DNA of 64,000 bases. It comes from Candidatus Palauibacter sp. (lineage in GTDB: Bacteria; Gemmatimonadota; Gemmatimonadetes; Palauibacterales; Palauibacteraceae). The DNA lies in NCBI RefSeq assembly GCF_965213655.1, contig NZ_CBDBZT010000003.1:3275829-3339828 (forward strand), written 5' to 3'. The translations under genes were made by a program, and so were the position numbers. This document shows, one piece after another, positions 1-12,547 of the stretch (within the stretch, counting starts at the first letter, position 1; each line of letters begins with the position of its first letter). The notes beneath the pieces are model-generated. The model was not told where the DNA came from, made no database searches, and saw only the letters and a program-made list of their open reading frames with translations.

Positions 1-150
1 CGCATCGTCAGGATCGCCGCGTGGGATGCGTCAACCCGTCGGCGGCTCCGGGAGGTTGTCTTGTCGCTCCAACCGCCGCAGCCGCTTCACCACCACCGAT
101 GACCCGTGGGCCCTGCTCCGTGACGCGCTCATCGACACGGGGCCGGGAGT

Positions 151-1407
151 CTACCGGACATCTTGCGGCAATCGCCTCACGGTGATGACCGGGACATCAA
201 ACTCGTCCGTGCCGAGGAAAGCTGCCAGACCGTCGGGACCAAAGGCGTCCGGCATTTCGCGCCTCCCGGCGGGGAAGGTTCCGACGTAGCGCCCGTCCGG
301 TGCGAGCACGTCGATGGGACCCGGATCGCTTGCACCCGGCTCCGTGCTCCGCTCGATCCACAGGCTTCCGTCCCACGTGACGCGCACGGCGGCTATCACA
401 GGCACGTCGGCGTGGAACTGCATGTTATCAAGAGCCTCCCGCCGTGTAGACTGAATGCGGCTGATCATCTCCGAGACCTGCGGCGGCGGATCGCCACCGC
501 TCAGGGAGGTAAACGTCCGCTTGCTCTCCCTTTCGAGCCGCCGTTGCCGCTCCGCCCGCTTCAACTCCTCCGTCGCCGGCAGCGGTCGTATTGGTCGGCG
601 TAGGATGCGCGAGACCGCCCCGGAGGCATCGGTGAGCTTGACTGCGTAAGCAGTAGAATCGGAAAACGCGATCCCGCCCGTTGGCAGCGCGTCGAACAGC
701 ACCTCCGGTTCAAATCCCCATTCCGCGTCGGCGAGCGCGGCGAGCACAGTCTCGAAACCCGCACCGTCCGGGAACTCGGTCGTAGCTCGTGGAGCCCAAG
801 CTTCGAACAGCAACCGGTCCTCGACCTCCTCCGAGGACATGTCAATACGGAGGATCGAGCGTTCGTCCCGGCCCAACACCGTCCGAGACCCCGTCCGCTC
901 CGATCGAAGACCCGCACGGATTCCGAAGCCGAATCCTGGACCCGACTCCCGCACCGTGCGTTCGTACCCGCCACCGGGACTGAAGATGTGGTATCCTCTC
1001 ATCATGTCGCCAACCAACGCTCCTCCGTCCTCCCATACGACCAGCTGCGACGCCGTCTGAAACTCGCCCGGACCCTGGCCCGCGCGCCCGAAGTCTCCGA
1101 CATGGCGTCCGGAAGCATCCACGACAACGACCCGCCCTCCGCCCCCCGCGCCCGCCCCGTCCAGCAAGTACAGGTTCCCCACACCGTCGAAGCCGACGCC
1201 TTGGATGGAGGAGAATTCCTCCCATCGGGCCACCGCGTCCGCAGAGCCGACGCGGTACACCGACTCGAACTCCGCCGGGAGCGGAATATCCTCGGCAGGC
1301 AGATCGACAACCTCTTGGGCACGGATGCCTGTAGCTCCCAAAACGGCGACGAGCGCTCCGACCGTTGCCATTCCACCGATAACCAATGGTCCGAGTCTCC
1401 GATGCAT
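151..1407 (-). CDS. Secreted 6-bladed beta-propeller (NHL-like) protein
   Basis: Signal peptide ending IRA-Q; motifs '[11 protein letters not shown]' and C-terminal '[12 protein letters not shown]...[13 protein letters not shown]'. Start set at ATG 1407. Confidence 0.75.
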
Positions 1408-1540
1408 CTTGGCCACGCCTCCACATGGATCAGGTCCCGTCAAGCCCTACAGGGGCCACTGACTATGAAAGTCGTAGATGCATGGGCGCAAGCGATCCCG
1501 GCGGCCCGAATCCGGGGAGGGTGACCGTGCGCGGGGCGTC

Positions 1541-1660
1541 GGGGGTTCCAAGGGGGCCGAGCACCCCCTTGGCCAGAGCCGCGATGTTCAACGTCGCGTC
1601 GGCTGGCTTGCTTGCTTGCTTGCTTGACTACCTAACGGTGTTCGAGCCGGCGGGAACGCC
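1541..1660 (+). other. Conserved noncoding oriT-like motif (copy 1) with a (GCTT)n expansion
   Basis: GGGGGTTCCAAGGGGG..CACCCCC, then CCAG, hairpin GCGATGTT-C-AACGTCGC, then GCTGGCT; homologous to 18053-18108 plus 19449-19490. Confidence 0.5.
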
Positions 1661-1699
1661 GTCCCAAGGCCTACAACGCAGCGGCCTCGAAGGGCTTTG

Positions 1700-1990
1700 T
1701 CAGTTCCGGATGCGCCGCAACGTTGGTCCACTCGAATGCTGAGGCAACTCGAAGGCTCGAATGCCGACTCAACACGCGGCGAGACCTCGACCGGTTCGCC
1801 AGTTCTCGGATTGCCGCACGTTCCCCTGCGGTGTCGCACCTTGAAGGTGCCCGAAACCCCAGGTCCCGATGTGGTCGCCACACCAGCGTTTCGCTCACGG
1901 CGTCGAGGATATGTGACGCAGCAAGTCTCCAACGAGACTTGGTCGGCCTAACGGGGCCTCGCGCTTGGACCGGCGGGTGACCGCTATCGG
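1700..1990 (-). pseudogene. Frameshifted HU/IHF DNA-binding protein remnant
   Basis: 'ILDAVSETLV' in one frame and 'GTFKVRHRR..GNPRTGEPVEVSPR..FEPS' (HU/IHF arm signature) in another. Boundaries approximate. Confidence 0.7.
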
Positions 1991-2373
1991 CGCGGAAAGA
2001 GTGGTTTTGGGGTGATCCACGGCAACCCAGTACCAACTGTCAATGGCGGCCGAAAATGTGACACACCCGGCCGGAGTTGACGAGCCTCGGGGGGTGTATC
2101 GGCCCCATCTTGCGGCGTACGCGGTCGCATCTCGGGATTGACGTGAGTCAACGGCAATTCAGAGCGTTTTGAATTGGTCGGCAGGGCGCAAACGCTAACG
2201 AAACTTGTCCCTCGTCGCCGGAGGCGATGGCAAGACCGTCTTGACGGCGGGTTCGGTATGGTCGAATCTGGCTTCGGAAGTGAACTGCTCGGGTCTAGCG
2301 AGATGCCGACTCGCGATCGTTACGAGAGAGGCTTCTTCACCGTCGACTGTGGGCCAAGGAATTGGAGGGGAAC

Positions 2374-2694
2374 GTGGGAAAGTACATGTTGCGGACAAGC
2401 TACACGCCGTCCGGCTTGAAAGGTCTGATTGCCGAGGGAGGCACTGGGAGGCGTGAGGCCTTGCGCCAAACCGTGGAGAGCATCGGTGGCACGCTGGAGG
2501 GGTTTTACTACGCTCTCGGCGACGACGACCTCTACTTGATCGCCGACCTTCCGGACGAGACAGCAGCCCTGTCATTATCGCTGAACATCGCGGCAGCCGG
2601 GGCCCTTACGGTCGCCGTGACTGTTCTGGTCGACCCGGAGACCGTTGACGAGGCGGTCGCGCGGGGCGTCGCGTATCGCCCACCGGGAGCTTGA
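2374..2694 (+). CDS. GYD domain-containing protein
   Basis: 'SYTPSGLKGL..GG.GRREA....ESIGG.LE.FYYA.G..D' pattern; GGAGG precedes GTG 2374. Confidence 0.85.
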   Translation: MGKYMLRTSYTPSGLKGLIAEGGTGRREALRQTVESIGGTLEGFYYALGDDDLYLIADLPDETAALSLSLNIAAAGALTVAVTVLVDPETVDEAVARGVAYRPPGA

Positions 2695-2975
2695 TGGGCT
2701 CATCCCCTCTTCTGGGGGTCTGGGCAGACCATATTTTGACTCAGTGAGGGTCCGGCTTCCGGGGCTGATCCAGGTTCCGGAAATGTGTGGAAAGAGCGTT
2801 GTGATCGAAGATTCGGCATCGAGGTTCCGTTGTAGCTGAGATAGGTTTCGCCGCGACCTGTGCGACTTGCATCCGCGACCGGGTTACCGGGTGATGGGTC
2901 ATTTTGGAGTAGCTCTTGGGTTGCCTTGGTCGGGGCGTAGGCGGCCCTTTTCGCGTTATTTCGCTTCGGTGCCCG

Positions 2976-4274
2976 TCAGGACCGGTCGGGGACGGGGATG
3001 CCGTAGCGCTCCAGGGTCTGCCGCACCGTCGGGCGGCCGAGGCGGACGCGGTCATCGTCGAGCAGGTAGGAGAACAGGTAGCCCGCGCCCAGCATCAGGA
3101 TCCCGATCAGGAAACAGTACATGACCGCCCGGTCGGGGTAGCTGTCCTTCAGGTATCCGACGTACAGCGGGCCGCAGATGCCGGCTGCCGCCCACGCAGT
3201 CAGGATCGCGCCGTAGACCTTCGACATGTTCCTGGGACCGTACACCTCGAGGATGAACGACGGCATGGTCGCGAACCCGCCGCCGAAGCAGAGCAGCACG
3301 TAGCACACGAGCGCCGAGAACACCCACGGGTTGGACTCGGTCATCAGGACGCCGAACACGACCATCTGGCTCGCGAGCAGCATCCGGAACACCGCCACGC
3401 GCCCCACGCGGTCGGAGAGCCACGCCCACAGGATCCGTCCCAGCCCGTTGCACACGGAACTTGCCGCGATGAGCGTCGCTCCGTACTCCGCAAGCACCGC
3501 TGGTTCGACGCTCGGATCGGCCAGCCCCCACACCTCCTGGAGGAGTTCGGACTGGAAGCTGATGACCGAGATGCCCGCGGCGATGTTGAAGAAGAAGACG
3601 ATCCAGATGATGACGAACTGGCTGGATTTCAGGTACGGGGCCACCTGTGCGGGCTGCTTCCACGGCGCGACCTGGGCGGCGGGGGGGTCGTCGATGACCA
3701 GGCTGCTCGGGATCAGGATGCAGGCGAAGACGATCCCCAGCCACAGGAAGGTCTGCGCAAGGTCCCCCTCCGTCTGCACGACGAGCAGGGGCGCGAGACC
3801 CTTGCTCAGGAGGAGCGCGCCGATGCCGAAGCCCATCACGACGATGCCCGTGACCAGTCCCTTCCGGTCCGGGAACCACTTCGCGGCCGTGGTGACGGGC
3901 GTCACGTACCCCAGTCCGATGCCCATCCCGCCGATGAACCCGTAGCCGAGGTAGAAGAGCAGGATCGAATCCAGCCGCAACGCGACGCTCGCCACGACGT
4001 AGCCACCGGCGAACAGGGTGCTTCCGATGAGGGCGAGACGCCGGGGCCCCACCTTGGGCAGCAGCTGGCCGGCCCAGGCCGCGGCCGTTCCGAGGGAGAA
4101 GATCGCGATGCAGAAGGCCAGCGATCCCTCGGTGAACGTCCAGCCGGCCTGCCGGACAAGAATCGTCTGAAAGAAACTCCAGGCGTACACCGTGCCGAAG
4201 CAGACCTGCAGGACGGTGCAGAAGAAGGCGATCGCGACTCGGGGCGCCTTCCAGCCCTCTGTGGATGAGGCCAC
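2976..4274 (-). CDS. MFS transporter, OFA (oxalate/formate antiporter) family
   Basis: About 12 TM helices; 'GTVYAWS', 'KWFPDRKGLVTG..VMGFG.G', 'NGLGRI.W..LSDRVGR'. Confidence 0.9.
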   Translation of the reverse strand: MASSTEGWKAPRVAIAFFCTVLQVCFGTVYAWSFFQTILVRQAGWTFTEGSLAFCIAIFSLGTAAAWAGQLLPKVGPRRLALIGSTLFAGGYVVASVALRLDSILLFYLGYGFIGGMGIGLGYVTPVTTAAKWFPDRKGLVTGIVVMGFGIGALLLSKGLAPLLVVQTEGDLAQTFLWLGIVFACILIPSSLVIDDPPAAQVAPWKQPAQVAPYLKSSQFVIIWIVFFFNIAAGISVISFQSELLQEVWGLADPSVEPAVLAEYGATLIAASSVCNGLGRILWAWLSDRVGRVAVFRMLLASQMVVFGVLMTESNPWVFSALVCYVLLCFGGGFATMPSFILEVYGPRNMSKVYGAILTAWAAAGICGPLYVGYLKDSYPDRAVMYCFLIGILMLGAGYLFSYLLDDDRVRLGRPTVRQTLERYGIPVPDRS

Positions 4275-4275
4275 G

Positions 4276-5016
4276 TCAGTCCGCTCCCGGCGCCGTCTCG
4301 CCCTTCACGGCGTGCAGCATGAGGCGGGCCATCTCCCCGATCTCGTCATCGCGCGCCAGCACCTTCGCATCGGTCGCCGCGGCTTCGTCGCGGCGCGCCA
4401 GCGTCACCACGTAGGAGAGCAGATCCTCCAGCGGCGTGACGGCGAGCCTCACGAACCAGATCGAGCCCAGGATGCCGACGATGAGAATGATGCAGATGAG
4501 GTATATCTGCTGCCCGGTGGCCCGCTGGATCTTCAGCCGCACGAGGTCCAGGTCCATCCCCACATGCACCGTGCCGGCCTGGCCAGCCAGGATCGGGCTC
4601 CCGACCTCGACGAAATCGCCCATCCCCGGCAGGCTGCGCTCGATCGGCTCGGTGGCGTGCGGGTCGCCCTCGCGGATCACGTCCGGGACGCCCGGCACGA
4701 ACGTGTGGGTCAGGATCTCGCCGGTGTCGCTCGTGATGTAGATGTACCGGATGCTCTGGATCTCGACGAACTGGTCGATGAGCGACTGCAGCGTCGCGAG
4801 GTTGCGGTTGAGGAGGATGTCGACGCTGGAGTCGGCGATGTTCTTGGCGATGTTCGCGCTGTTGCTCTCGTACTCCTCCGACAGCTGGCTGGAGACCGTG
4901 CGGATCGAAAGGGCGGAGGTGGAGAAGACGATCGCCCCGAAGAGGACGAAAATGCCGAAGCGCGTCCTCCGAAAGAGCTTCTTGATCCGGATCTCGTTTG
5001 ATTCCGGCTGGTTCAC
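4276..5016 (-). CDS. Membrane sensor-like protein (TM, periplasmic domain, TM, HAMP) with no output domain
   Basis: Two hydrophobic segments; 'PLEDL...RDDEIGEMAR' HAMP motif; protein ends about 15 aa later. Confidence 0.75.
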   Translation of the reverse strand: MNQPESNEIRIKKLFRRTRFGIFVLFGAIVFSTSALSIRTVSSQLSEEYESNSANIAKNIADSSVDILLNRNLATLQSLIDQFVEIQSIRYIYITSDTGEILTHTFVPGVPDVIREGDPHATEPIERSLPGMGDFVEVGSPILAGQAGTVHVGMDLDLVRLKIQRATGQQIYLICIILIVGILGSIWFVRLAVTPLEDLLSYVVTLARRDEAAATDAKVLARDDEIGEMARLMLHAVKGETAPGAD

Positions 5017-6458
5017 GAGGCCCCGTCGCTCGTCGCGTTCAGGCCGAACTTGGCTTCCCAGTCGTTGAGGGTGACGAAGCGGCCGTCCTCCACGACGGTG
5101 TGGTAGACGCTCTGGAGGCCCTGTCGTCGATCGGGCCCGAACGAGACCATTTCGCCGATCCCCAGATCATAGTTCCGCACCGAGAACACCGCGTCGTTCA
5201 GCTTGCCGCGCTCCGGTGTGCCGTCAATCCGACGCAGGATTTCCGTCAGCAGCTTCGCATCCAGGTATCCCTCGAGGCTCGTGAAGCTGTACGGGAACGG
5301 GTCGTACGGTTCCACCACCAGCTCTTCCGGCACCTGTGGATCGTAGCGGTCCATCAGGTCCCGGTACTCGGGCACGGACGGAATCGTCGTGTCCTCGTAA
5401 CTGGGCACGACCTGCGAGTTCACGAGCCACGGCGTGTAATGGGCCGGGTCGTCGCGGCTGGCCTCCACGAGAAGGGAGAGCAGGTTCTCGCTCCCCACGA
5501 AGGAGAGGTTCGCGATGGGCACGTGCAGACCCAGATCCATCGCGTCGCGGGCGAAGGCGGCGCAGGCGGCGTACGCGCCCACGCAGATGACCGCATCGGG
5601 CTCGGCCTCCTGCAGGATCTCGACCTGCGGCCGCATGATGCTCGTGAACTGCGTGCCTCGCCTGTAGGTGGCCTCGCCTGCAATCGTCTCCCCGTGCCGT
5701 GCCAGCGCCGCCCTCACGCCGGCCCAGCCGCTGCGCCCGTAGGCGTCGGCCTGGTAAAAGACGGCGATGCGCCGCCGCCCGATGCGGACGAAGTTGTCGA
5801 CGAGACCGGCCGTCTCCTGGCCATAGGAGGCGCGCAGGTTGAACGCGAACTCCCCGTACGGCGCTTCCCGCTGCGGCTGGGCGCCCGTGAACGGAAAGAA
5901 GATGTACATCTGCTGGTCCTGGAACTTCTTCAGCAGCGGCAGGACGCGGGTGACGGTCGGCGTGCCGACGTAGCCGAACAGCAGAAAGACTTCGTCCTCC
6001 AGCATCAGCTTGAGCGTGTTCTCCACGCACGGATCGGGCTGATAACCGTCGTCGTAGAGCTTGAGGGTGATTCGCCGCCCGTTGACGCCGCCCTGTTCGT
6101 TCACTTGGCCGAAGCAGGCCATGGCGCCGCGGTAGAGTTCGGTGCCCAGTCCTCGCGAGGGCCCGGAGAAGGCCGCGGACACGCCAAGGAGGATCTCGTC
6201 GTCAGGCTGCGCGCGGCTCCTTCCGCTCCAGCGCAGGCCGGGAGCGAGCGGTCGGGAGGGGGCGCCGAGAGAGGCGTTGAGCGATGCCGCGAAGGGCGCG
6301 CCGAGCAGACCGGCGAGACCGGCGCGGATCGCGGAGCGGCGCGTCAGGAGCCCGCCGGACGGAGGGCCCTCAGAGTCCGGGGATCGAGAAGAAGACCGCA
6401 CACCACGAACTCCCCCGGTTAGGTCGATTTGATTGAGGCTGTCGCTTACGCCCGACAT
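5013..6458 (-). CDS. Tat-exported periplasmic binding protein (LivJ-like, type I fold)
   Basis: 'TRRSAIRAGL' twin-Arg; 'GVSAAFSGP', 'NEQGGVNGRRI..YDDGYQP', 'GYVGTPT'. Confidence 0.85.
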   Translation of the reverse strand: MSGVSDSLNQIDLTGGVRGVRSSSRSPDSEGPPSGGLLTRRSAIRAGLAGLLGAPFAASLNASLGAPSRPLAPGLRWSGRSRAQPDDEILLGVSAAFSGPSRGLGTELYRGAMACFGQVNEQGGVNGRRITLKLYDDGYQPDPCVENTLKLMLEDEVFLLFGYVGTPTVTRVLPLLKKFQDQQMYIFFPFTGAQPQREAPYGEFAFNLRASYGQETAGLVDNFVRIGRRRIAVFYQADAYGRSGWAGVRAALARHGETIAGEATYRRGTQFTSIMRPQVEILQEAEPDAVICVGAYAACAAFARDAMDLGLHVPIANLSFVGSENLLSLLVEASRDDPAHYTPWLVNSQVVPSYEDTTIPSVPEYRDLMDRYDPQVPEELVVEPYDPFPYSFTSLEGYLDAKLLTEILRRIDGTPERGKLNDAVFSVRNYDLGIGEMVSFGPDRRQGLQSVYHTVVEDGRFVTLNDWEAKFGLNATSDGAS

Positions 6459-6569
6459 GCCTAGACCTCCGTTTCGATCATCGACCGATCCGACCAATAG
6501 TCGAAGTCTATCACAAGCAGACATAGATTCAAAGCACGGCGGCACCGGTCTGCCGAACTTGACCGGCGA

Positions 6570-7625
6570 TCAGAAGAAGGCGAACGCTTGGACTTTCAGG
6601 GACCAGTCGGAATGATCGCCGGACGTGTAGAAATCCACGTTGGTGGAGATCCCGTTCCGGCCCACGAAGTAGACCATCACGCCCGGGGTCACGACCGTAC
6701 CCGTGACCTTGTCGGGATCTTCGGCACCCGAGTCGACCCAGCTAACCCGGACCATCGGCTCGACCGCCGCGAAGTGTGACTCGGGCGCCAAGGGGAAATA
6801 CCAGAAAGCCATGAGCTGAAGGGCCGAGAACTTCGCGTCGTCGTCCAGCTTCCAATTGCGGCCCTGCAGGGCGTTGACCATGAGATGGGGACCGTCGAGC
6901 CAGGTCCCGATCTCCACCTCGGCCCCGTAGGCCGGCACGCCCATCGTCTCGCCATGCGAATCCAGCGTCTCGTCCAGGGCCAAGTAGGCCGACACTCGGC
7001 TGCCGGCGGCCGGGAACACCGAGAAGCGACCGGAGGCGGACTTGCCGCGGTTCACGTCCCTGTAGCCGATTCCCTCACCGTTGGTGAGTGTGAACCGGTA
7101 TCCGAAACGCTCCCCGAAGCGACCCTGCGCGAGGATGCCCGGCTCGTAGTTGTCCAGCCCCAATGCGCCGGTCAGACGACCAAAGGAGCACACGCTGCCC
7201 ACACCGGGGCAGTGATCGACGCCGGTGACCCGAGCGTCGCGCTCGATGATCGGGAGCCAAGCGTTCGGCACGAGCCAGAACTCCGAAATCCCCTTCTTGA
7301 ACTGGCCCAGCTGTACCTGCAGCGCTTCGCTCGCCGTAAGTTCGAGGTAGGCCTCTAGCACCGTCGACCCGTCGATATCGTACTGCGCGCGTGCCGCCAC
7401 CAGATCGTTCAGCCGCCCGTCCATCGTCACCCACGCACGGCGGATGAAGAACGATGAGGGCGTGTCGTCGACGCTCGATGCCTCGAACTGAGCTTGGATC
7501 CTGGCGCCGATGGTGACGCTGGACCCGCCGCGTGCCCCAATTTCCTGTGCGTTCAGGGGCCCGGCGATCACAAGTGCCAGTCCCAAGCCGACTACGGCTG
7601 CCACTCCGCTGAAAGGTATGCTCAT
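6570..7625 (-). CDS. Outer membrane porin, OprO/OprP-like
   Basis: Signal peptide; 'GARIQAQF', 'FFIRRA', 'LEAY', 'GQFK'; terminal Phe. Confidence 0.75.
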   Translation of the reverse strand: MSIPFSGVAAVVGLGLALVIAGPLNAQEIGARGGSSVTIGARIQAQFEASSVDDTPSSFFIRRAWVTMDGRLNDLVAARAQYDIDGSTVLEAYLELTASEALQVQLGQFKKGISEFWLVPNAWLPIIERDARVTGVDHCPGVGSVCSFGRLTGALGLDNYEPGILAQGRFGERFGYRFTLTNGEGIGYRDVNRGKSASGRFSVFPAAGSRVSAYLALDETLDSHGETMGVPAYGAEVEIGTWLDGPHLMVNALQGRNWKLDDDAKFSALQLMAFWYFPLAPESHFAAVEPMVRVSWVDSGAEDPDKVTGTVVTPGVMVYFVGRNGISTNVDFYTSGDHSDWSLKVQAFAFF

Positions 7626-8040
7626 GTGGATCTGCCCTCTCGAAGAAGGTCCCGGGCGGCCCGGTCACGGTCGAAGATAGCTGCCTCTGGCCAGACCGCC
7701 AGCGCCGTTCTCTTGCGCAGTACCAAAGGGGGATCCCGAAGACCGACAGTTTGGAGAGGCGAAGCCCGAACCTCCGAAGCGTGGGGACCACAAGCGCGAG
7801 CCGGTGCCTATCGCAGTCAGCTTCCCAGCCACAGAAAGGGTTGGGCCAGATGGGGACCGAATTGTGCTTCCTTATGCTCCATGTCGAGAGCAGGGTCCAA
7901 CCAGATGTAGACCTCAATCGGGGGACGGAAGAGCCTGCACCTCTGTTCGATTTGAGCGTCGGTCTCGCGACGGGACGCCTTTGATCGTTGCCAAGAACGC
8001 TGTTTCGTACCCCCCTTGTCCGTACCTGTCCGGTTTGCGT

Positions 8041-9234
8041 TCAGGCAGGGTCCGCTCCTGCGGGCCTGGCAAGGTAGCGAGCCCACTGCTCCATCACCTC
8101 CCGCCGCCGCGCGAAAAGGGTTCCTCGGGCGTATGCGGCCTCCACCTTGTCACGTACGACGTGGGCCAAGGCCGCCTCGGCAACCTCCCTGGCCACGCCG
8201 GTGTCGCCGCACCAGACTCTGAACGACGTGCGGAACCCATGGGGCACGGCGGCAACGCCGTTCTCCCTGAGCAGCTTCGAGAGCGTGCTGGCCGAGAGTG
8301 CCCGATTGGTCGGAGAGGGGAAGACCAGTCCATCGCCGCCTGCGTGACGGCGAGCCTCGCAGAGGACCTCGATCGCCCTCGGAGTCAGCGGCACCCTGTG
8401 TGTACGCCCGGACTTCATGCGGTCGCCCGGGACCGTCCAAGTCTCCGTCCCGACGTCCATTTCCTGCCACATGGCGTGGCGGACCTCGCCCGACCGCGCC
8501 GCCGTCAGAACCAGAAACTCGAAGGCGAGCTTGGTCGCCGGCCATGCCCGCGAAGCGCGGATCGCCTCCAGCGCCGCGCCCACCTCCCCGTGGGGAAGTG
8601 CCCGGAAGTGCCGACGGCCCTTCCCGTGCCGGGGGAGGGCCGAACCGATGGCGTCACCGGCCGGGTTGCTCTCCCGGTAGCCTTGGGCCACCGCCCACTT
8701 CATGATCGCGCCGATTCGCTGGCGCACTCTCCGCGCGGTCTCCGGCTTGCTCGACCAGATCGGGAGCAGGATCTCCATCACGTCCGCCGTCGTGATCTCG
8801 TCGACCCCCTTCGCGCCCAGCCGCGGCATCGCGTAGTCGCGAAGACTCGCCCGCCACTGACCCTCGCTTCTCCCGCCGGGACGCCAAGACGCACGGTGGA
8901 TGGCGATCACCGTCTCGGCTGCTTCCTTGAACTTCGGCGAGGCCTCTCTGGCCAGCCTCGGATCCTCGCCGGACCGGGCCGACTTGCGGTACTCGAAAGC
9001 CTTCTGGCGGGCCTCGGCGAGCGTCACATAAGGGTATCCGCCCAAGCCCATATCCACCCGCTTTCCGCCAACGGTGCCGCGCCAGATCCATTGCTTGCTC
9101 CCGGAGGGAAGCACCCGTAGGATGAGGCCGTGCTGGTCCCCGTATTTGTCTGGACCGGTCTTGCCGCTGTGACCGACGTTGCGGACGAACAGGCCGGTGA
9201 GTCCGGTCGCTGGTTTCGGTGTCTTCGAGGTCAT
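8041..9234 (-). CDS. Tyrosine recombinase/integrase, P4-like with arm-binding domain
   Basis: 'YGDQHGLILRV.PSGSKQW' arm domain; catalytic R (TAARSGE), K, HGFR, LAH and Y (AAY) all present. Confidence 0.95.
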   Translation of the reverse strand: MTSKTPKPATGLTGLFVRNVGHSGKTGPDKYGDQHGLILRVLPSGSKQWIWRGTVGGKRVDMGLGGYPYVTLAEARQKAFEYRKSARSGEDPRLAREASPKFKEAAETVIAIHRASWRPGGRSEGQWRASLRDYAMPRLGAKGVDEITTADVMEILLPIWSSKPETARRVRQRIGAIMKWAVAQGYRESNPAGDAIGSALPRHGKGRRHFRALPHGEVGAALEAIRASRAWPATKLAFEFLVLTAARSGEVRHAMWQEMDVGTETWTVPGDRMKSGRTHRVPLTPRAIEVLCEARRHAGGDGLVFPSPTNRALSASTLSKLLRENGVAAVPHGFRTSFRVWCGDTGVAREVAEAALAHVVRDKVEAAYARGTLFARRREVMEQWARYLARPAGADPA

Positions 9235-9466
9235 TGCTCTTGGTTACCGTCTCATCTGTTGTCCCACGGTACGTCCCACAGCGTGTTCAAGAATACCCGG
9301 AACATCACGGGATGTCAAGGGACGGCATGGCGGATGTAACATTTTTGGGGAAAGGGATTTAGGACACGTTACGGGATCAGCATGGACTGCACGGGAATGG
9401 CGGGGAGGCGGACACCCCCTCCGCCTGGAAGTAGGAGAGTGTGGGGCGAAACTCCGGTTGAGGCGT

Positions 9467-9615
9467 GACTCGAAAGAGTCTCGTGGGTTCGAACCGAGCG
9501 ACCGAAGGGAGCGAGCTCGGCGAGCTGCGGAGCGGTGAAGCCAACCGAGCGACCAACGGAAGCGAGCTCGGCGAACCCTGCGAAGCAGGGAGAGCCCATT
9601 CCCACCCCCTCCGCC
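9467..9615 (+). repeat. tRNA-3'-derived repeat with two palindromic cassettes in the T-loop
   Basis: GACTC-GAAA-GAGTC (variable arm-like), TCGTGGGTTCGAA, [cassettes 9494-9544 and 9545-9599], TCCCACCCCCTCCGCC. Confidence 0.75.
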
Positions 9616-9625
9616 TGCAGCAGAA

Positions 9626-9653
9626 CCTCCGGCACACCCGGAGGCGTTTTTTT
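9626..9653 (+). terminator. Intrinsic terminator-like hairpin
   Basis: CCTCCGG-cacac-CCGGAGG followed by CG and T7. Confidence 0.5.
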
Positions 9654-9741
9654 GGACGGGTGGCCGAGCGGACTAAGGCGCACGCCTGGAGAGCGTGTGG
9701 GCAGCAACCCTGCCTCGTGGGTTCGAATCCCACCCCGTCCG
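9654..9741 (+). tRNA. tRNA-Ser(GGA)
   Basis: Acceptor GGACGGG/CCCGTCC; anticodon arm CACGC-CT-GGA-GA-GCGTG; long variable arm; GGGTTCGAATCCC; CCA not encoded. Confidence 0.97.
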
Positions 9742-9773
9742 TCCAGGCAGTTCCACGAGGCAGGGCCGAAACG

Positions 9774-9851
9774 CCTGCCCTCGTGGGTTCGAACCGAGCG
9801 ACCAGCGGGAGCGAGCTCGGGGAGCGTAGCGACCCAATCCCACCCCGTCCG
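9774..9851 (+). repeat. tRNA-Ser(GGA) 3'-end copy with a 44-nt T-loop cassette
   Basis: CCTGCCCTCGTGGGTTCGAA [9794-9837] TCCCACCCCGTCCG matches the adjacent tRNA 3' end. Confidence 0.8.
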
Positions 9852-9951
9852 TCGCTTTCAAAAGTTTGACATCAGGAACCCTCGCGGAGCACCTTCCCCG
9901 GCCCCGCATGCTGGGTGCTGAGCGTCTGCCGGACCCCTGTATGCGGCACCT

Positions 9952-10033
9952 GGAGAGGTGGCAGAACGGCAATGCACCGGTCTCGAAAACCGGCGCCCTC
10001 ACGGGCTTGGGGGTTCGAATCCCCCCCTCTCCG
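9952..10033 (+). tRNA. tRNA-Ser(CGA)
   Basis: Acceptor GGAGAGG/CCTCTCC; anticodon arm CCGGT-CT-CGA-AA-ACCGG; GGGTTCGAATCCC; CCA not encoded. Confidence 0.97.
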
Positions 10034-10034
10034 C

Positions 10035-10292
10035 TTAGAAGGGGTTCGAACCGAGCGAGCGAAGCGAGCGAGCTCGGCGAGTCCCGCGCAGCGGGAGGAA
10101 GCCAATCCCCCCCTCTCCGCTTAGAAGGGGTTCGAACCGAGCGAGCGAAGCGAGCGAGCTCGGCGAGTCCCGCGCAGCGGGAGGAAGCCAATCCCCCCCC
10201 TCTCCGCTTGGAAGGGGTTCGAACCGAGCGAGCGAAGCGAGCGAGCTCGGCGAGTCCCGCGCAGCGGGAGGAAGCCAATCCCCCCCTCTCCG
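10035..10292 (+). repeat. Three tandem ~86-bp tRNA-Ser(CGA) 3'-end repeats, each with a 55-nt T-loop cassette
   Basis: Units 10035-10120, 10121-10207 and 10208-10292 are nearly identical: GGGGTTCGAA [CCGAGC..GCTCGG..GCCAA] TCCCCCCCTCTCCG. Confidence 0.9.
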
Positions 10293-10985
10293 TTACGCAG
10301 GCTGGTACGGAGCCGGATCCCGTGCGTCCGCCGCAGCGAATCCTGCGAGTCTCAGGCGACAGGAGTCACACTCGGCACAGGCAGCGCCCGACTCATCGGG
10401 ATCGTAGCAACTCCGTGTCAGCCCGTAATCGACGCCCAGCGCGAGTCCGCGCTGGATGATCTCCCCCTTGGTAAGATCGATCAGAGGTGCATGGATCCGG
10501 AACGGCCGACTCCCTTCCACTCCCGCCCTGGTACCGAGGCCGGCGAGTCTCTCGAAGGCAGCAAGAAACTCGGGTCGGCAGTCCGGATATCCGCTGTAAT
10601 CGACTGCATTGACGCCGATGAAGATGTTGCGGGCGTCGAGAACTTCGGCCCAGGCGAGAGCCAGCGACAGGAAGATGGTGTTTCTTGCAGGGACGTACGT
10701 CACGGGAATCTCCTCCGGATCCCCAGCTGCGACTGCGCCCTTGGGTACCTCCAGGTCTCCCGTGAGCGCCGAGCCCCCGAACGTGCGCAGATCGATTTCG
10801 GTGATGACGTGCCGGGCCACTCCCATGGCTTCGGCCACGTGGCGGGCGGCCTCCACCTCGAGTTCATGTCTTAGTCCGTAGCGCAGGGTCAGCGCATGGA
10901 CCTGATACCCCTGCTCAAGCGCGATCGCCAGGGTGGTCGCCGAGTCCAGTCCACCGCTCAACAGGACTACCGCTCTGCGGCCCAT
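10293..10985 (-). CDS. queC: 7-cyano-7-deazaguanine synthase
   Basis: '[10 protein letters not shown]', 'TYVPARN', 'DYSGYPDCR', 'SCY..C..CDSC.LR'. Confidence 0.97.
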
Positions 10986-11143
10986 CGAATACCTCCAAAC
11001 GGGGTGCACATAAGGCGTTTCCGGGGCACGTCGGCGGCCACTTGTAACATGATTTCGCACGCCACTGCAACGCATGGTAGCGCGGGGCCGTTTCCATCGA
11101 GGGGCCTGCGTCAAGAGTCGTCCTCGACGGAGGATAGGGATTC

Positions 11144-12547
11144 GTGCCAACAAAGAGTGCCGCTTCGAGTCGCGATCCGGGACAGAGCGCCCTGCTCACG
11201 GATCTCTATCAGCTCACCATGCTGAAGGCGTACTGGGAGCACGGAATGCACGAGACGGCCGTGTTCGAGTTCTTCGTCCGCCGGCTGCCCCCGAATCGCA
11301 GTTTCCTGCTGGCGGCCGGCCTGGCTCACGCCCTCGACTACCTGGAACGCCTGCGCTTCGAGCCCGAGGCACTCGCATGGCTCGGCGGCCAGTCCGCCTT
11401 CCCCCCCGCCTTCGTCGACTGGCTCGCCGACCTGCGCTTCACCGGGGATGTGGACGCCATGCCCGAGGGCAGCGTTTTTTTCCCCGATGAGCCCGTCCTG
11501 CGGGTTACCGCGCCGCTCCCGCAGGCGCAACTCGTCGAATCGCGCCTCATCTCGCTGCTCAATTTCTCGTCTCTCATCGCCTCGAGGGCGGTCCGCTTCA
11601 CGCTCGCGGCCCCCAAAGCCCAACTCGTGGACTTCGGCCTGCGGCGAGCACACGGTTCCGAAGCGGGCCTGCTCGCCGCCCGAGCCGCATTTATCGCCGG
11701 CTTCGACGGCACCGCGACCGTCCTGGCGGGTCAGCGCTGGGGCATCCCCACCTTCGGGACCATGGCCCATTCGTTCATTCAGTCTCACGACAGCGAAGCC
11801 GATGCCTTCGTTCGCTTCGCCCGCGCCCATCCCGACAACGTGGTGCTGCTCATCGACACCTACGACACGGAGGCGGGAGCGGCGAAGGTCGTCGAGATCG
11901 CGCCCGGCCTCCGCGCCGAAGGCATCGAGATCACGGCGGTGCGGCTGGATTCCGGAGATCTCGCGACCCACGCACGGCGAGTACGCCGGATTCTGGATGA
12001 AGGCGGCTGCCCGGGCGTCCGCATCTTCGCCAGCAGTTCCCTCGACGAGTACGAAGTGGCTCGGCTGGCCGACGCGCCGATCGATGGGTTCGGCGTGGGG
12101 GCCGCTCTCACCGTCTCCTCGGACGCGCCGACGCTCGACAGTGTCTACAAGCTCCAGGAGTACGATGGCCGTCCGCGCCGCAAGCGCTCGGAGGGGAAAG
12201 CGACGTGGCCCGGCCGCAAGCAGGTCTTCCGGACATGCACCGATGGTCGGCTCGCGAGCGATGTCCTGGGACTCGAAGACGAAGGACTGACTGGAGAAGC
12301 TCTCCTGGAGCCGGTGATGCGTGTCGGAGCACGACTGCGGCCGGATCCTGCACTGGAGGAGATTCGGGACCGGGTCCGCAGCTCGTTGGCGATCCTCCCG
12401 GACGGATTGAGGGCGCTCGCGTCGGCCCGCGCTCCCTTCCGGGTCGAGCCATCGCCTGGCGTCCGGGCGCTGTCCCGACAGGTCGACGGGAAGTCCGCAG
12501 GATGCGGAGTCGACAGCGACTTCCGAACGTCCGGCGTTACGCGGTAG
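11144..12547 (+). CDS. pncB: Nicotinate phosphoribosyltransferase
   Basis: '[10 protein letters not shown]', 'DFGLRRAH', 'GTMAHS', 'LIDTYD', 'VRLDSGDL'. Confidence 0.95.

Follow-up and report, generated by a model that had tools for sequence, protein, structure and literature searches.

Two-hairpin cassettes in spare tRNA-Ser 3' ends of a Candidatus Palauibacter genome, tentatively read as a gene-less mobile DNA module

Why should the DNA behind the serine tRNA genes of a bacterium hold, time after time, a short copy of a tRNA end whose T loop is interrupted at one fixed position by the same small palindromic insert? The question is raised by a stretch of 64,000 nt (hereafter the window; G000:C3:3275829-3339828) of the Candidatus Palauibacter genome G000 (3.84 Mb, 68% G+C), where five repeat units hold six cassettes of 44-55 nt, all of them in spare copies of tRNA-Ser 3' ends. 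The answer that we favour, tentatively and with a little less than an even chance of its being right, is that the region consists of copies of a non-autonomous, protein-less mobile DNA module persisting in disabled spare tRNA ends.

Units and cassettes behind the tRNA-Ser genes

All six cassettes open with a 27-nt hairpin, CCGAGCGA..GCGAGCTCGG, followed by a second hairpin and by a CCAA end (CCCAT once). Five of the six lie directly 3' of GGGTTCGAA, the remaining one being stacked on another cassette, and 3' of the last cassette of each unit there is a T together with the 3' strand of the T stem and acceptor stem. These 3' flanks follow the neighbouring tRNA, since TCCCACCCCGTCCG stands behind Ser-GGA and TCCCCCCCTCTCCG behind Ser-CGA, and of the four spare ends checked against their cognate tRNA in the window three are exact and one has an extra C. 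The spare copy sits just downstream of the intact gene, so that bases 60 to 73 of the tRNA, with a few more, form a direct repeat of 14-18 bp; for the first unit (9426-9615) the corresponding gene is tRNA-Ser-GCT, 21 kb upstream beyond an integrated island. The combination of TTCGAA with the hairpin occurs five times in the window against none in 100 shuffles, and Tandem Repeats Finder describes the Ser-CGA array as 3.2 copies of period 86 with 98% matches (10018-10292). An earlier note, made on the letters of the window, had described five units with six cassettes at one T-loop position, flanks copied from tRNA 3' ends, cassettes stacked in tandem and whole units amplified; every element of that description is present, including the stacking of cassette 2 on cassette 1. 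ARAGORN does not call the units as tRNA genes. The features, in window coordinates, are the following.

8041-9234 (-): P4-type tyrosine integrase of the 21-kb island between tRNA-Ser-GCT and its unit (Pfam Arm-DNA-bind_3, Phage_int_M, Phage_integrase)
9413-9425 (+): copy of the attachment (att) core CACCCCCTCCGCC, right end of the 21-kb island, where the 99.4% stretch shared between islands stops
9426-9493 (+): left part of the Ser-GCT-derived unit, with junction motif CTGGAAGTA and a decayed tRNA copy (an acceptor-like and a T-like strand, then the variable arm; orthologous units exist in relatives), ending in GTGGGTTCGAA
9494-9544 (+): cassette 1, 51 nt, hairpin 1 and hairpin 2, end GCCAA
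9545-9599 (+): cassette 2, 55 nt, stacked straight onto cassette 1, end CCCAT
9600-9615 (+): spare 3' end TCCCACCCCCTCCGCC, equal to tRNA-Ser-GCT positions 60-73 plus CC
9626-9652 (+): hairpin and T run resembling an intrinsic terminator, which in relatives without the unit is the native terminator of tRNA-Ser-GCT
9653-9741 (+): intact tRNA-Ser (GGA) (ARAGORN; Rfam tRNA 55.1 bits)
9742-9793 (+): left part of the Ser-GGA unit, a junction and then a fold-back hairpin made of an inverted copy of the variable-arm 3' strand and the T-stem 5' strand, ending in GTGGGTTCGAA
9794-9837 (+): cassette 3, 44 nt, with hairpin 2 shrunk to GC-GTA-GC
9838-9851 (+): spare 3' end TCCCACCCCGTCCG, identical to that of tRNA-Ser-GGA
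9952-10033 (+): intact tRNA-Ser (CGA) (ARAGORN; Rfam tRNA 59.9 bits)
10034-10119 (+): Ser-CGA unit 1, with junction CTTAGAA, GGGGTTCGAA, cassette 4 (10051-10105) and spare end TCCCCCCCTCTCCG (10106-10119)
10120-10206 (+): Ser-CGA unit 2, with cassette 5 (10137-10191) and a spare end longer by one C (10192-10206)
10207-10292 (+): Ser-CGA unit 3, with cassette 6 (10224-10278) and spare end (10279-10292)
10293-11153 (-): queC, the native downstream gene that bounds the array (Pfam QueC 1.8e-72)

Beyond the window, the conserved hairpin brings the count in this genome to eight copies, six in the window and a stacked pair at C3:3195683, all of them in units derived from tRNA-Ser. All four tRNA-Ser genes of the genome carry units: tRNA-Ser-GCT (C3:3264282-3264368) is the source of the first unit of the window and tRNA-Ser-TGA (C3:3177219-3177303) that of the distant pair, and at both of these loci an island of 18-21 kb lies between the tRNA and its unit.

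Distribution, anatomy and covariation of the cassette

A scan of 36 Candidatus Palauibacter genomes, with "not G" six bases 5' of the hairpin as its sole condition, gave 90 hairpins in 25 genomes: 78 after TTCGAA, 8 stacked after ..CAA, 3 after CTGAAA (a second cassette of another type) and 1 elsewhere, against a single match of a control pattern in the same 36 genomes. The strict tRNA context proposed for the cassette was borne out by these copies, among which common occurrence away from tRNA was not seen. Units sit behind tRNA-Ser genes of the GCT, GGA, CGA and TGA kinds in arrays of 1-5, and a comparison of relatives, of the kind that the earlier note had called for across strains, showed that occupancy varies by locus. 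The cassette arrays are not an assembly artefact: arrays of one to five units with varying cassettes recur in independent assemblies, single-contig chromosomes included.

The cluster Gln/Ser-GCT/Ser-GGA/Ser-CGA stands without any unit in five genomes of the genus (G018, G022, G020, G014, G017), and in G006 and G043 the Ser-GCT site is empty and the Ser-GGA sites are occupied. When empty and occupied sites are compared, the inserted DNA falls between the tRNA end and the native downstream sequence, is flanked by the 14-18 bp direct repeat (T60 to G73 plus a few bases) and begins with the junction motif (C)TWAGAAG, which is common to all four Ser loci and absent from empty sites. One orthologous site holds one or two cassettes depending on the assembly, the nine distinct stacking junctions are precise, and of 61 distinct cassettes, 4 recur within one genome ahead of different tRNA ends, with three end types in G016. 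Five Ser-GGA units in G019 alternate between two flavours, the product expected of unequal crossing-over. Truncated cassettes occur, no uninterrupted T loop was found in unit-like copies among the genus loci examined, and perfect spare ends are found in 24 of 26 inner units vs. 21 of 34 last units, a gradient that fits growth at the tRNA side and edge effects of a tandem array equally well.

Two loci of this collection, L035 and L087, carry in addition to downstream units a cassette-bearing pseudo-copy of tRNA-Ser-TGA, anticodon loop included, upstream of the intact gene. The bin assignment of L035 is Acidimicrobiia; its sequence is Palauibacter-like, and the locus may be mis-binned. At L102 (G016:C4:2134900-2137900), an insert of ~1.4 kb (oriented positions ~900-2330) breaks hairpin 1 of the third Ser-GGA unit and ends in an island-type arm, GGCGGAGGGACGGA, followed by the Ser-GGA end, which looks like an integrase-less remnant of an island family targeting tRNA-Ser-GGA.

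Outside the genus, an exact scan for the hairpin over 185,579 species genomes gave 35 stretches, and one over metagenomes gave 17. The same hairpin in TTCGAA context lies behind tRNA-Arg (CCG or TCT) in Rikenellaceae/Bacteroidales genomes of 38-45% G+C and behind tRNA-Arg-ACG in a gammaproteobacterial genome, with further occurrences behind tRNA-Arg-CCG in the genus member G004 and, on metagenome contigs, behind tRNA-Thr-CGT and tRNA-Leu-TAA. The genes flanking five such loci (four in Bacteroidales genomes, the fifth on a low-G+C metagenome contig) are of the housekeeping kind, among them leucyl-tRNA synthetase (LeuRS), aconitase and a sigma factor. What is common across phyla is GTTCGAA, hairpin 1 (with outer stem and bulge identical), the architecture of hairpin 2 and the ..CAA end, and nothing else, the remainder of each unit being local tRNA. 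Within a sample of 401 Gemmatimonadota genomes, 18 of them Candidatus Palauibacter, copies in proper context were confined to this genus (14 of the 18 drawn), and 16 other genomes gave single out-of-context matches, about the control level. In many units the T arm, or the T-stem 5' strand with the variable-arm strand, recurs in inverted form 8-15 nt upstream of GTTCGAA and yields a fold-back hairpin beside the cassette, as seen in Bacteroidales, in the tRNA-Thr contig and in the Palauibacter Ser-GGA units.

The anatomy was drawn from 84 distinct complete cassettes, which gave 33 variants of hairpin 1 and 58 tails, with borders ambiguous by 1-2 A. Hairpin 1 has the form CCGAGC-GA-[2-4 bp stem, 3-nt loop]-(GA)-GCGA-GCTCGG, in which the outer stem CCGAGC/GCTCGG is constant over the 33 variants and the 3' bulge GCGA is retained in 31 of them. 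Its inner positions vary in a paired manner: pair 9-15 is C-G in 22, G-C in 6 and A-T in 2, pair 8-16 is A.G in 23, A-T in 3 and C-G in 4, and pair 7-17 is G.A in 25 and G-C in 7. Hairpin 2 consists of a covarying 3-bp outer stem (GGC/GCC, GGG/CCC, GAC/GTC), tandem G.A/A.G, a variable stem and the ..CAA end, with a c-GNA-g triloop in 40 of the 58 tails and GC-GNA-GC (for example GC-GAA-GC) as its minimal form. Across an alignment of 45 sequences, four pairs and 22 cells show changes on both sides, and the covariation score was reached by none of 500 shuffles, with slid controls far lower. A kink-turn reading of hairpin 1 would place the tandem G.A beside the outer stem, a register at odds with the 4-bp inner stem, which covaries. 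Pairing between GTTCG and the CGAAC that ends the cassette is possible in Bacteroidales units.

The fold is strand-specific. The G.A/A.G mismatches are confined to the tRNA-sense strand, the opposite strand of which would carry C.T/T.C, and by predicted energies the top strand folds ~3.6 kcal/mol better as RNA than its opposite. At the window locus the hairpin strand is the lagging-strand template, as judged from GC skew, with an origin near 2.32 Mb and a terminus near 0.78 Mb. Mini-hairpins of the c-GNA-g type are unusually stable as DNA and are not known to be so as RNA, and because of this we lean to single-stranded DNA: most likely, the cassette structures fold only on the tRNA-sense strand, as single-stranded DNA. 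Because compensatory evolution continues and the outer stem is invariant, the folded single strand would still be recognised by something.

Readings of the cassette and what decides between them

The reading as a mobile, dispensable piece of DNA is preferred over an ancient functional RNA because the cassette is patchy across phyla, is present or absent at one and the same site, changes in copy number, stacks, is shared between tRNA ends and has no gene. Under this reading the cassette would enter a lineage rarely, and would persist only where a spare tRNA end exists by chance duplication or arises during insertion, given that in a single-copy tRNA it would destroy the gene. Within a genome, the unit would then spread to sister isoacceptor genes and amplify in tandem via the shared T-arm and acceptor-end sequence, be it through unequal crossing-over, ectopic conversion, template switching or P4-type integrases acting on the tRNA-end repeat, and the hairpins would work as cis signals for a putative factor supplied in trans. 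Spread through shared isoacceptor sequence would explain why each lineage shows one amino-acid family (Ser here, Arg in Bacteroidales) together with tandem growth, and P4-type integrases on the same repeat may also move or resize units. All these steps of movement are inferred.

Several results weigh against this reading. The Y1 HUH family (PF01797) has no match in this genome and matches in only 7 of the 36 genomes of the genus, being absent from the cassette-rich G000, G011, G023, G008 and G002 with their 4-8 copies each; no integron integrase passed the cut-off (best match to TIGR02249 88.9 bits vs. 265); only two small GIY-YIG matches occur in the genus, both in genomes without the strict hairpin; an autonomous form with a gene between the hairpins was not seen; and viral contigs gave no hairpin match. 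The copy number outside is low, with a single locus in each of five genomes (one of which, G436, is the G004 of the genus). The duplicated stretch runs from 14 to ~65 bp (L057, terminator included) or takes in a whole tRNA plus terminator, as at L051, where such a copy has an internal deletion and forms a 12-bp acceptor/T minihelix; because this length varies, one fixed staggered-cut mechanism does not fit. The T stem at L084 has covaried away from the tRNA and the gammaproteobacterial unit forms a 12-bp minihelix, which a folded RNA fits equally. In this genome, the tRNA-Val and tRNA-Ala copies at ordinary attR sites keep their T loops whole and hold no cassette, and because these scars stay cassette-free a free T loop is insufficient to attract one. 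Finally, folding energies of most cassettes are no better than those of shuffles (top-strand z -2.5 to +0.9), and because such scores are uninformative we draw structural support from covariation.

The search for a helper enzyme has eliminated several candidates. An HUH/RAYT helper was rejected, Y1 matches being absent from this genome and from the cassette-rich ones and the seven genus matches lying among housekeeping genes with flanks that hold neither a cassette nor cassette-like ends. The idea of a mobile, REP-like (repetitive extragenic palindromic) element has survived in part: a discrete, site-bound and probably mobile element tied to T loops and duplicated tRNA ends is supported, and its proposed link to REP/RAYT or HUH nucleases is not. 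A small GIY-YIG/Ssn helper was rejected as well, since cassette-bearing genomes of the genus have none and every GIY-YIG match there lies in a frame of at least 269 amino acids (UvrC-like, or ~360-440 amino acids); the two small matches elsewhere in the genus are a UvrC fragment at a contig end and a gene in a plasmid-like region without cassette-like flanks. Small GIY-YIG and Y1 genes do occur in three Bacteroidales hosts, though not in the neighbourhood of the unit; in the gammaproteobacterial host there is no strong match to either. A supposed autonomous version in G012, a hairpin followed by low-G+C DNA, proved to be a truncated cassette beside a short open frame, its neighbour being by eye a 3-oxoacyl-ACP synthase (KAS II/FabF)-like gene. 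CRISPR-like, guide-RNA, casposon and retro-copy models were dropped because the spare ends, too, lack CCA where the gene lacks CCA; moreover, the duplicated length of 14 to ~65 bp is at odds with them (casposons make a 14-15 bp duplication), and no matching enzyme lies nearby.

A bolder version, which we hold to be possible if rather doubtful, is that the cassette represents an unrecognised class of gene-less mobile DNA with the tRNA T loop as its universal dock, moved as folded single-stranded DNA by a putative factor, maybe a conserved host enzyme, outside the HUH, integron and GIY-YIG systems, and that the insertion itself creates the spare end. A putative conserved host enzyme would explain the identity of the hairpin across phyla, and a spare end created by the insertion would explain the survival of the host tRNA.

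The strongest rival, unlikely in our judgement, takes the units to be transcribed with the tRNA and to act as RNA, that is, as a tRNA-like trailer, a T stem or minihelix with a two-hairpin expansion at the structurally permissive 59/60 site, which would help in processing, act as a decoy or supply tRNA 3' fragments. In its favour, the units always run in the same direction as the tRNA and, in the genus, lie between the tRNA and its native terminator; against it, the Bacteroidales and gammaproteobacterial units lie behind a terminator with no room for a promoter. The RNA evidence, which consists of assembled contigs only, includes a metatranscriptome contig of 588 nt (depth 23) that spans tRNA-Ser-GCT, the cassette unit and tRNA-Ser-GGA, with carry-over of DNA possible, and other contigs of the same library that cover the CGA units. 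Two further results have no bearing on transcription: the GGA unit (9744-9928) is uncovered in the RNA runs, X16 and X18 covering little, and no contig of these runs joins TTCGAA directly to TCCC across the cassette, which has no bearing on splicing either. The covariation of the L084 T stem and the gammaproteobacterial minihelix count for an RNA, as do the tandem G.A and the GCGA bulge, which are also common RNA motifs. Also against it, T-stem pairing is lost in several units, the minimal hairpin 2 (GC-GNA-GC) is very stable as DNA and weak as RNA, and no Rfam family matches; the units are also dispensable and patchy (five genomes of the genus are without them, and one genus only has them in the phylum sample), vary in copy number and carry stacked cassettes.

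Two observations belong beside this rival. In Rfam 15, only tRNA reached the gathering score in the window and nothing matched in seven loci of other hosts; below threshold, the Xanthomonas small RNA sX4 scored 40.9 bits vs. 70 at 9938-10102, driven by the tRNA-Ser part. The sX4 model seems to hold a tRNA-Ser with a structured trailer, and Xanthomonas may have an analogous arrangement behind tRNA-Ser. As for the suggestion that the inserts are introns or pre-tRNA processing structures, this is unlikely, because the units are without the tRNA 5' half (the Ser-GCT-derived unit, with its imperfect acceptor-like 5' strand, being a partial exception) and a search for the splicing endonuclease PF01974 gave 0 matches.

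Distinctly unlikely, too, is that the cassette alone is a single-stranded DNA transposon derived from IS200/IS605 (a palindrome-associated transposable element, PATE) or of the REP kind, which would insert 3' of ..CGAA in any T loop, the spare ends being pre-existing island scars. Two subterminal hairpins, a fixed left sequence, a ..CAA end (the corresponding sequences of IS608 are TTAC, left, and TCAA, right), placement at a single site without clear target duplication, precise stacking junctions and a hairpin strand that is the lagging-strand template all speak for it, and P4-type islands do use the same tRNA ends. It is opposed by the lack of a Y1 transposase in this genome and 29 of the 36 of the genus, with no cassette-like ends around the seven matches, by the real tRNA-Val and tRNA-Ala scars that hold no cassette, by units that outside the genus sit among housekeeping genes with no island nearby, and by a left cleavage site that would abut the foot of the hairpin, unlike in IS608. 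The tRNA-Val-TAC and tRNA-Ala-TGC copies (C3:1545505, (-), and C3:3057697) extend from the anticodon loop to the 3' end and lie ~41 and 37 kb from their respective genes.

More improbable still is that the units are landing pads or decoys favoured by the host, whose extra att cores would steer P4-type islands behind the working tRNA, the cassette blocking recombination with the gene. Islands do lie between tRNA and unit in G000, G010, G012 and G013, the G016 remnant with its island-type arm lies inside a distal GGA unit, an integrase relative in G050 lies ~370 bp downstream of a cassette, and no spare copy without a cassette was seen in the genus loci examined. Relatives of the window integrase (E <= 1e-40) occur in 21 of 21 genomes of the genus with Ser-type units vs. 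3 of 15 without, an association confounded by kinship within the genus, which weakens it here and for the favoured reading alike. Against landing pads, both islands of this genome used the tRNA's own end and not the spare one, the benefit to the host is only putative, and the conservation of the hairpin across phyla would be left without explanation. The integrase that the earlier note, in naming the decoy idea, placed ~230 bp from the units is indeed there (8041-9234), and it belongs to a separate island that is outside the cassette system yet uses the same tRNA-end repeat. The att core of these islands is the final 12-13 bases of the tRNA, the same bases terminating tRNA-Ser-GCT and tRNA-Ser-TGA, and the two islands at these genes have 7.9 kb in common at 99.4% identity, ending exactly at the core.

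Around these islands some further observations can be recorded. Three related islands (C3:3177304-3195650, C3:3264369-3285253, which includes window positions 1-9425, and C3:2357768-2375000) have P4-type integrases that are 95-100% identical; the third lies at an orphan tRNA-Ser 3' fragment whose T loop, TTCGAGT, has no cassette, and this island has a 39-bp direct repeat on its two sides and the unit-type motif TGAGAAGG at its right junction. The genome has 36 matches to the phage-integrase family in 3.8 Mb, 10 of them close relatives of the window integrase, of which there are 18 in G006 and 16 in G012. Two 88-nt calls of 'tRNA-Arg(CCG)' by ARAGORN (C3:2373715-2373802 and C3:3182973-3183060), with identical flanks and inside related islands, are probably repeated island sequence and not real tRNA genes.

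Lastly, it is scarcely credible that the units are inert leftovers of recombination, or an artefact of assembly, without continuing constraint. Truncated cassettes exist and degeneration is commoner in distal units, but compensatory changes in both hairpins contradict this reading, the outer stem and bulge are identical across phyla, genomes of 38-45% G+C included, and the arrays recur in independent complete assemblies.

Comparison with known systems

Literature searches, which did not cover the supplements of the Ssn paper discussed below, where motif types are perhaps listed by lineage, found no published description of such a cassette, and as far as they go a gene-less module of ~50 nt inside a T-loop copy is apparently undescribed, with a hairpin whose letters are the same in Gemmatimonadota, Bacteroidales and a gammaproteobacterial genome. 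If the cassette is mobile, it points to a new way of moving DNA or to a newly hijacked host enzyme, and it would be a concrete case of selfish DNA aimed at an essential gene of which a working copy is nevertheless preserved; if it is an RNA instead, a tRNA-like structure of a new kind, its T loop expanded, would be at hand. For annotation, the units inflate intergenic repeats and supply extra att cores for P4-type islands.

With PATE and REP-RAYT elements the cassette shares its shortness, its non-coding nature and a lagging-strand template, and it resembles them in its strand-specific, imperfect hairpins at both ends and in a fixed left sequence. Fixed borders (TTCGAA| and ..CAA|, ambiguous by 1-2 A) and strand-specific hairpins are seen, with a cleavage-site spacing unlike that of IS608. 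In contrast to these dispersed elements, the cassette has 1-8 copies per genome, all of them at tRNA ends and always inside a duplicated tRNA 3' end, and the Y1 enzyme was not found in most of its host genomes. We know of no REP whose hairpin sequence is conserved across phyla as that of the cassette is.

Integron attC sites resemble it in their folded single-strand hairpins, in unpaired bases that mark the strand, in head-to-tail stacking at one docking site and in a site content that differs between relatives, and ordered stacking at one dock is present here (8 copies after ..CAA and 3 after CTGAAA among the 90). The difference is that the cassette has neither RYYYAAC/GTTRRRY cores, starting with CCGAGCG and ending in ..CCAA, nor open reading frames, and that it docks at a tRNA T loop.

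The tRNA genes are classic landing sites of integrating islands, and the att remnants of such islands share with the units the 14-18 bp repeat of a tRNA 3' end, empty and occupied sites, and arrays behind Ser, Arg, Leu and Thr tRNAs; cis-mobilisable elements and tycheposon-type arrays of partial tRNAs are further systems of this kind. The insert here, however, is only ~70-170 bp long, has no gene and always holds the two-hairpin cassette inside a T-loop copy, whereas the ordinary island scars of this genome hold none. No integrase gene lies inside the units, and the adjacent one belongs to a separate island with different arms.

The Ssn (GIY-YIG) nucleases act on GC-rich hairpin repeats (NTS/SRM) only as single-stranded DNA (Chenal et al. 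2025, PMC11893778). These NTS repeats number hundreds per genome and are not reported from tRNA genes, the word 'tRNA' occurring 0 times in the main text of that paper (PMC11893778). One hairpin-2 variant, TCCCGC-GCA-GCGGGA, resembles the NTS stem, and the cassette differs in that the published SRM motif has 0 matches at 9300-10400 and that no small GIY-YIG gene is present in cassette-bearing genomes of the genus.

Non-canonical introns of archaeal tRNAs occur at position 59/60, the same T-loop position, and are likewise structured inserts; here the hosts are bacterial, the interrupted copy is without its 5' half, and an intact gene always adjoins. Rickettsia palindromic elements insert into working genes with no target duplication and are, like the cassette, small selfish palindromic inserts tolerated inside RNA and protein genes, whereas the cassette is found in spare copies only. 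In summary, the cassette shares features with PATE/REP elements, with attC sites and with the att remnants of islands, and it departs from each of the three in a feature that defines it.

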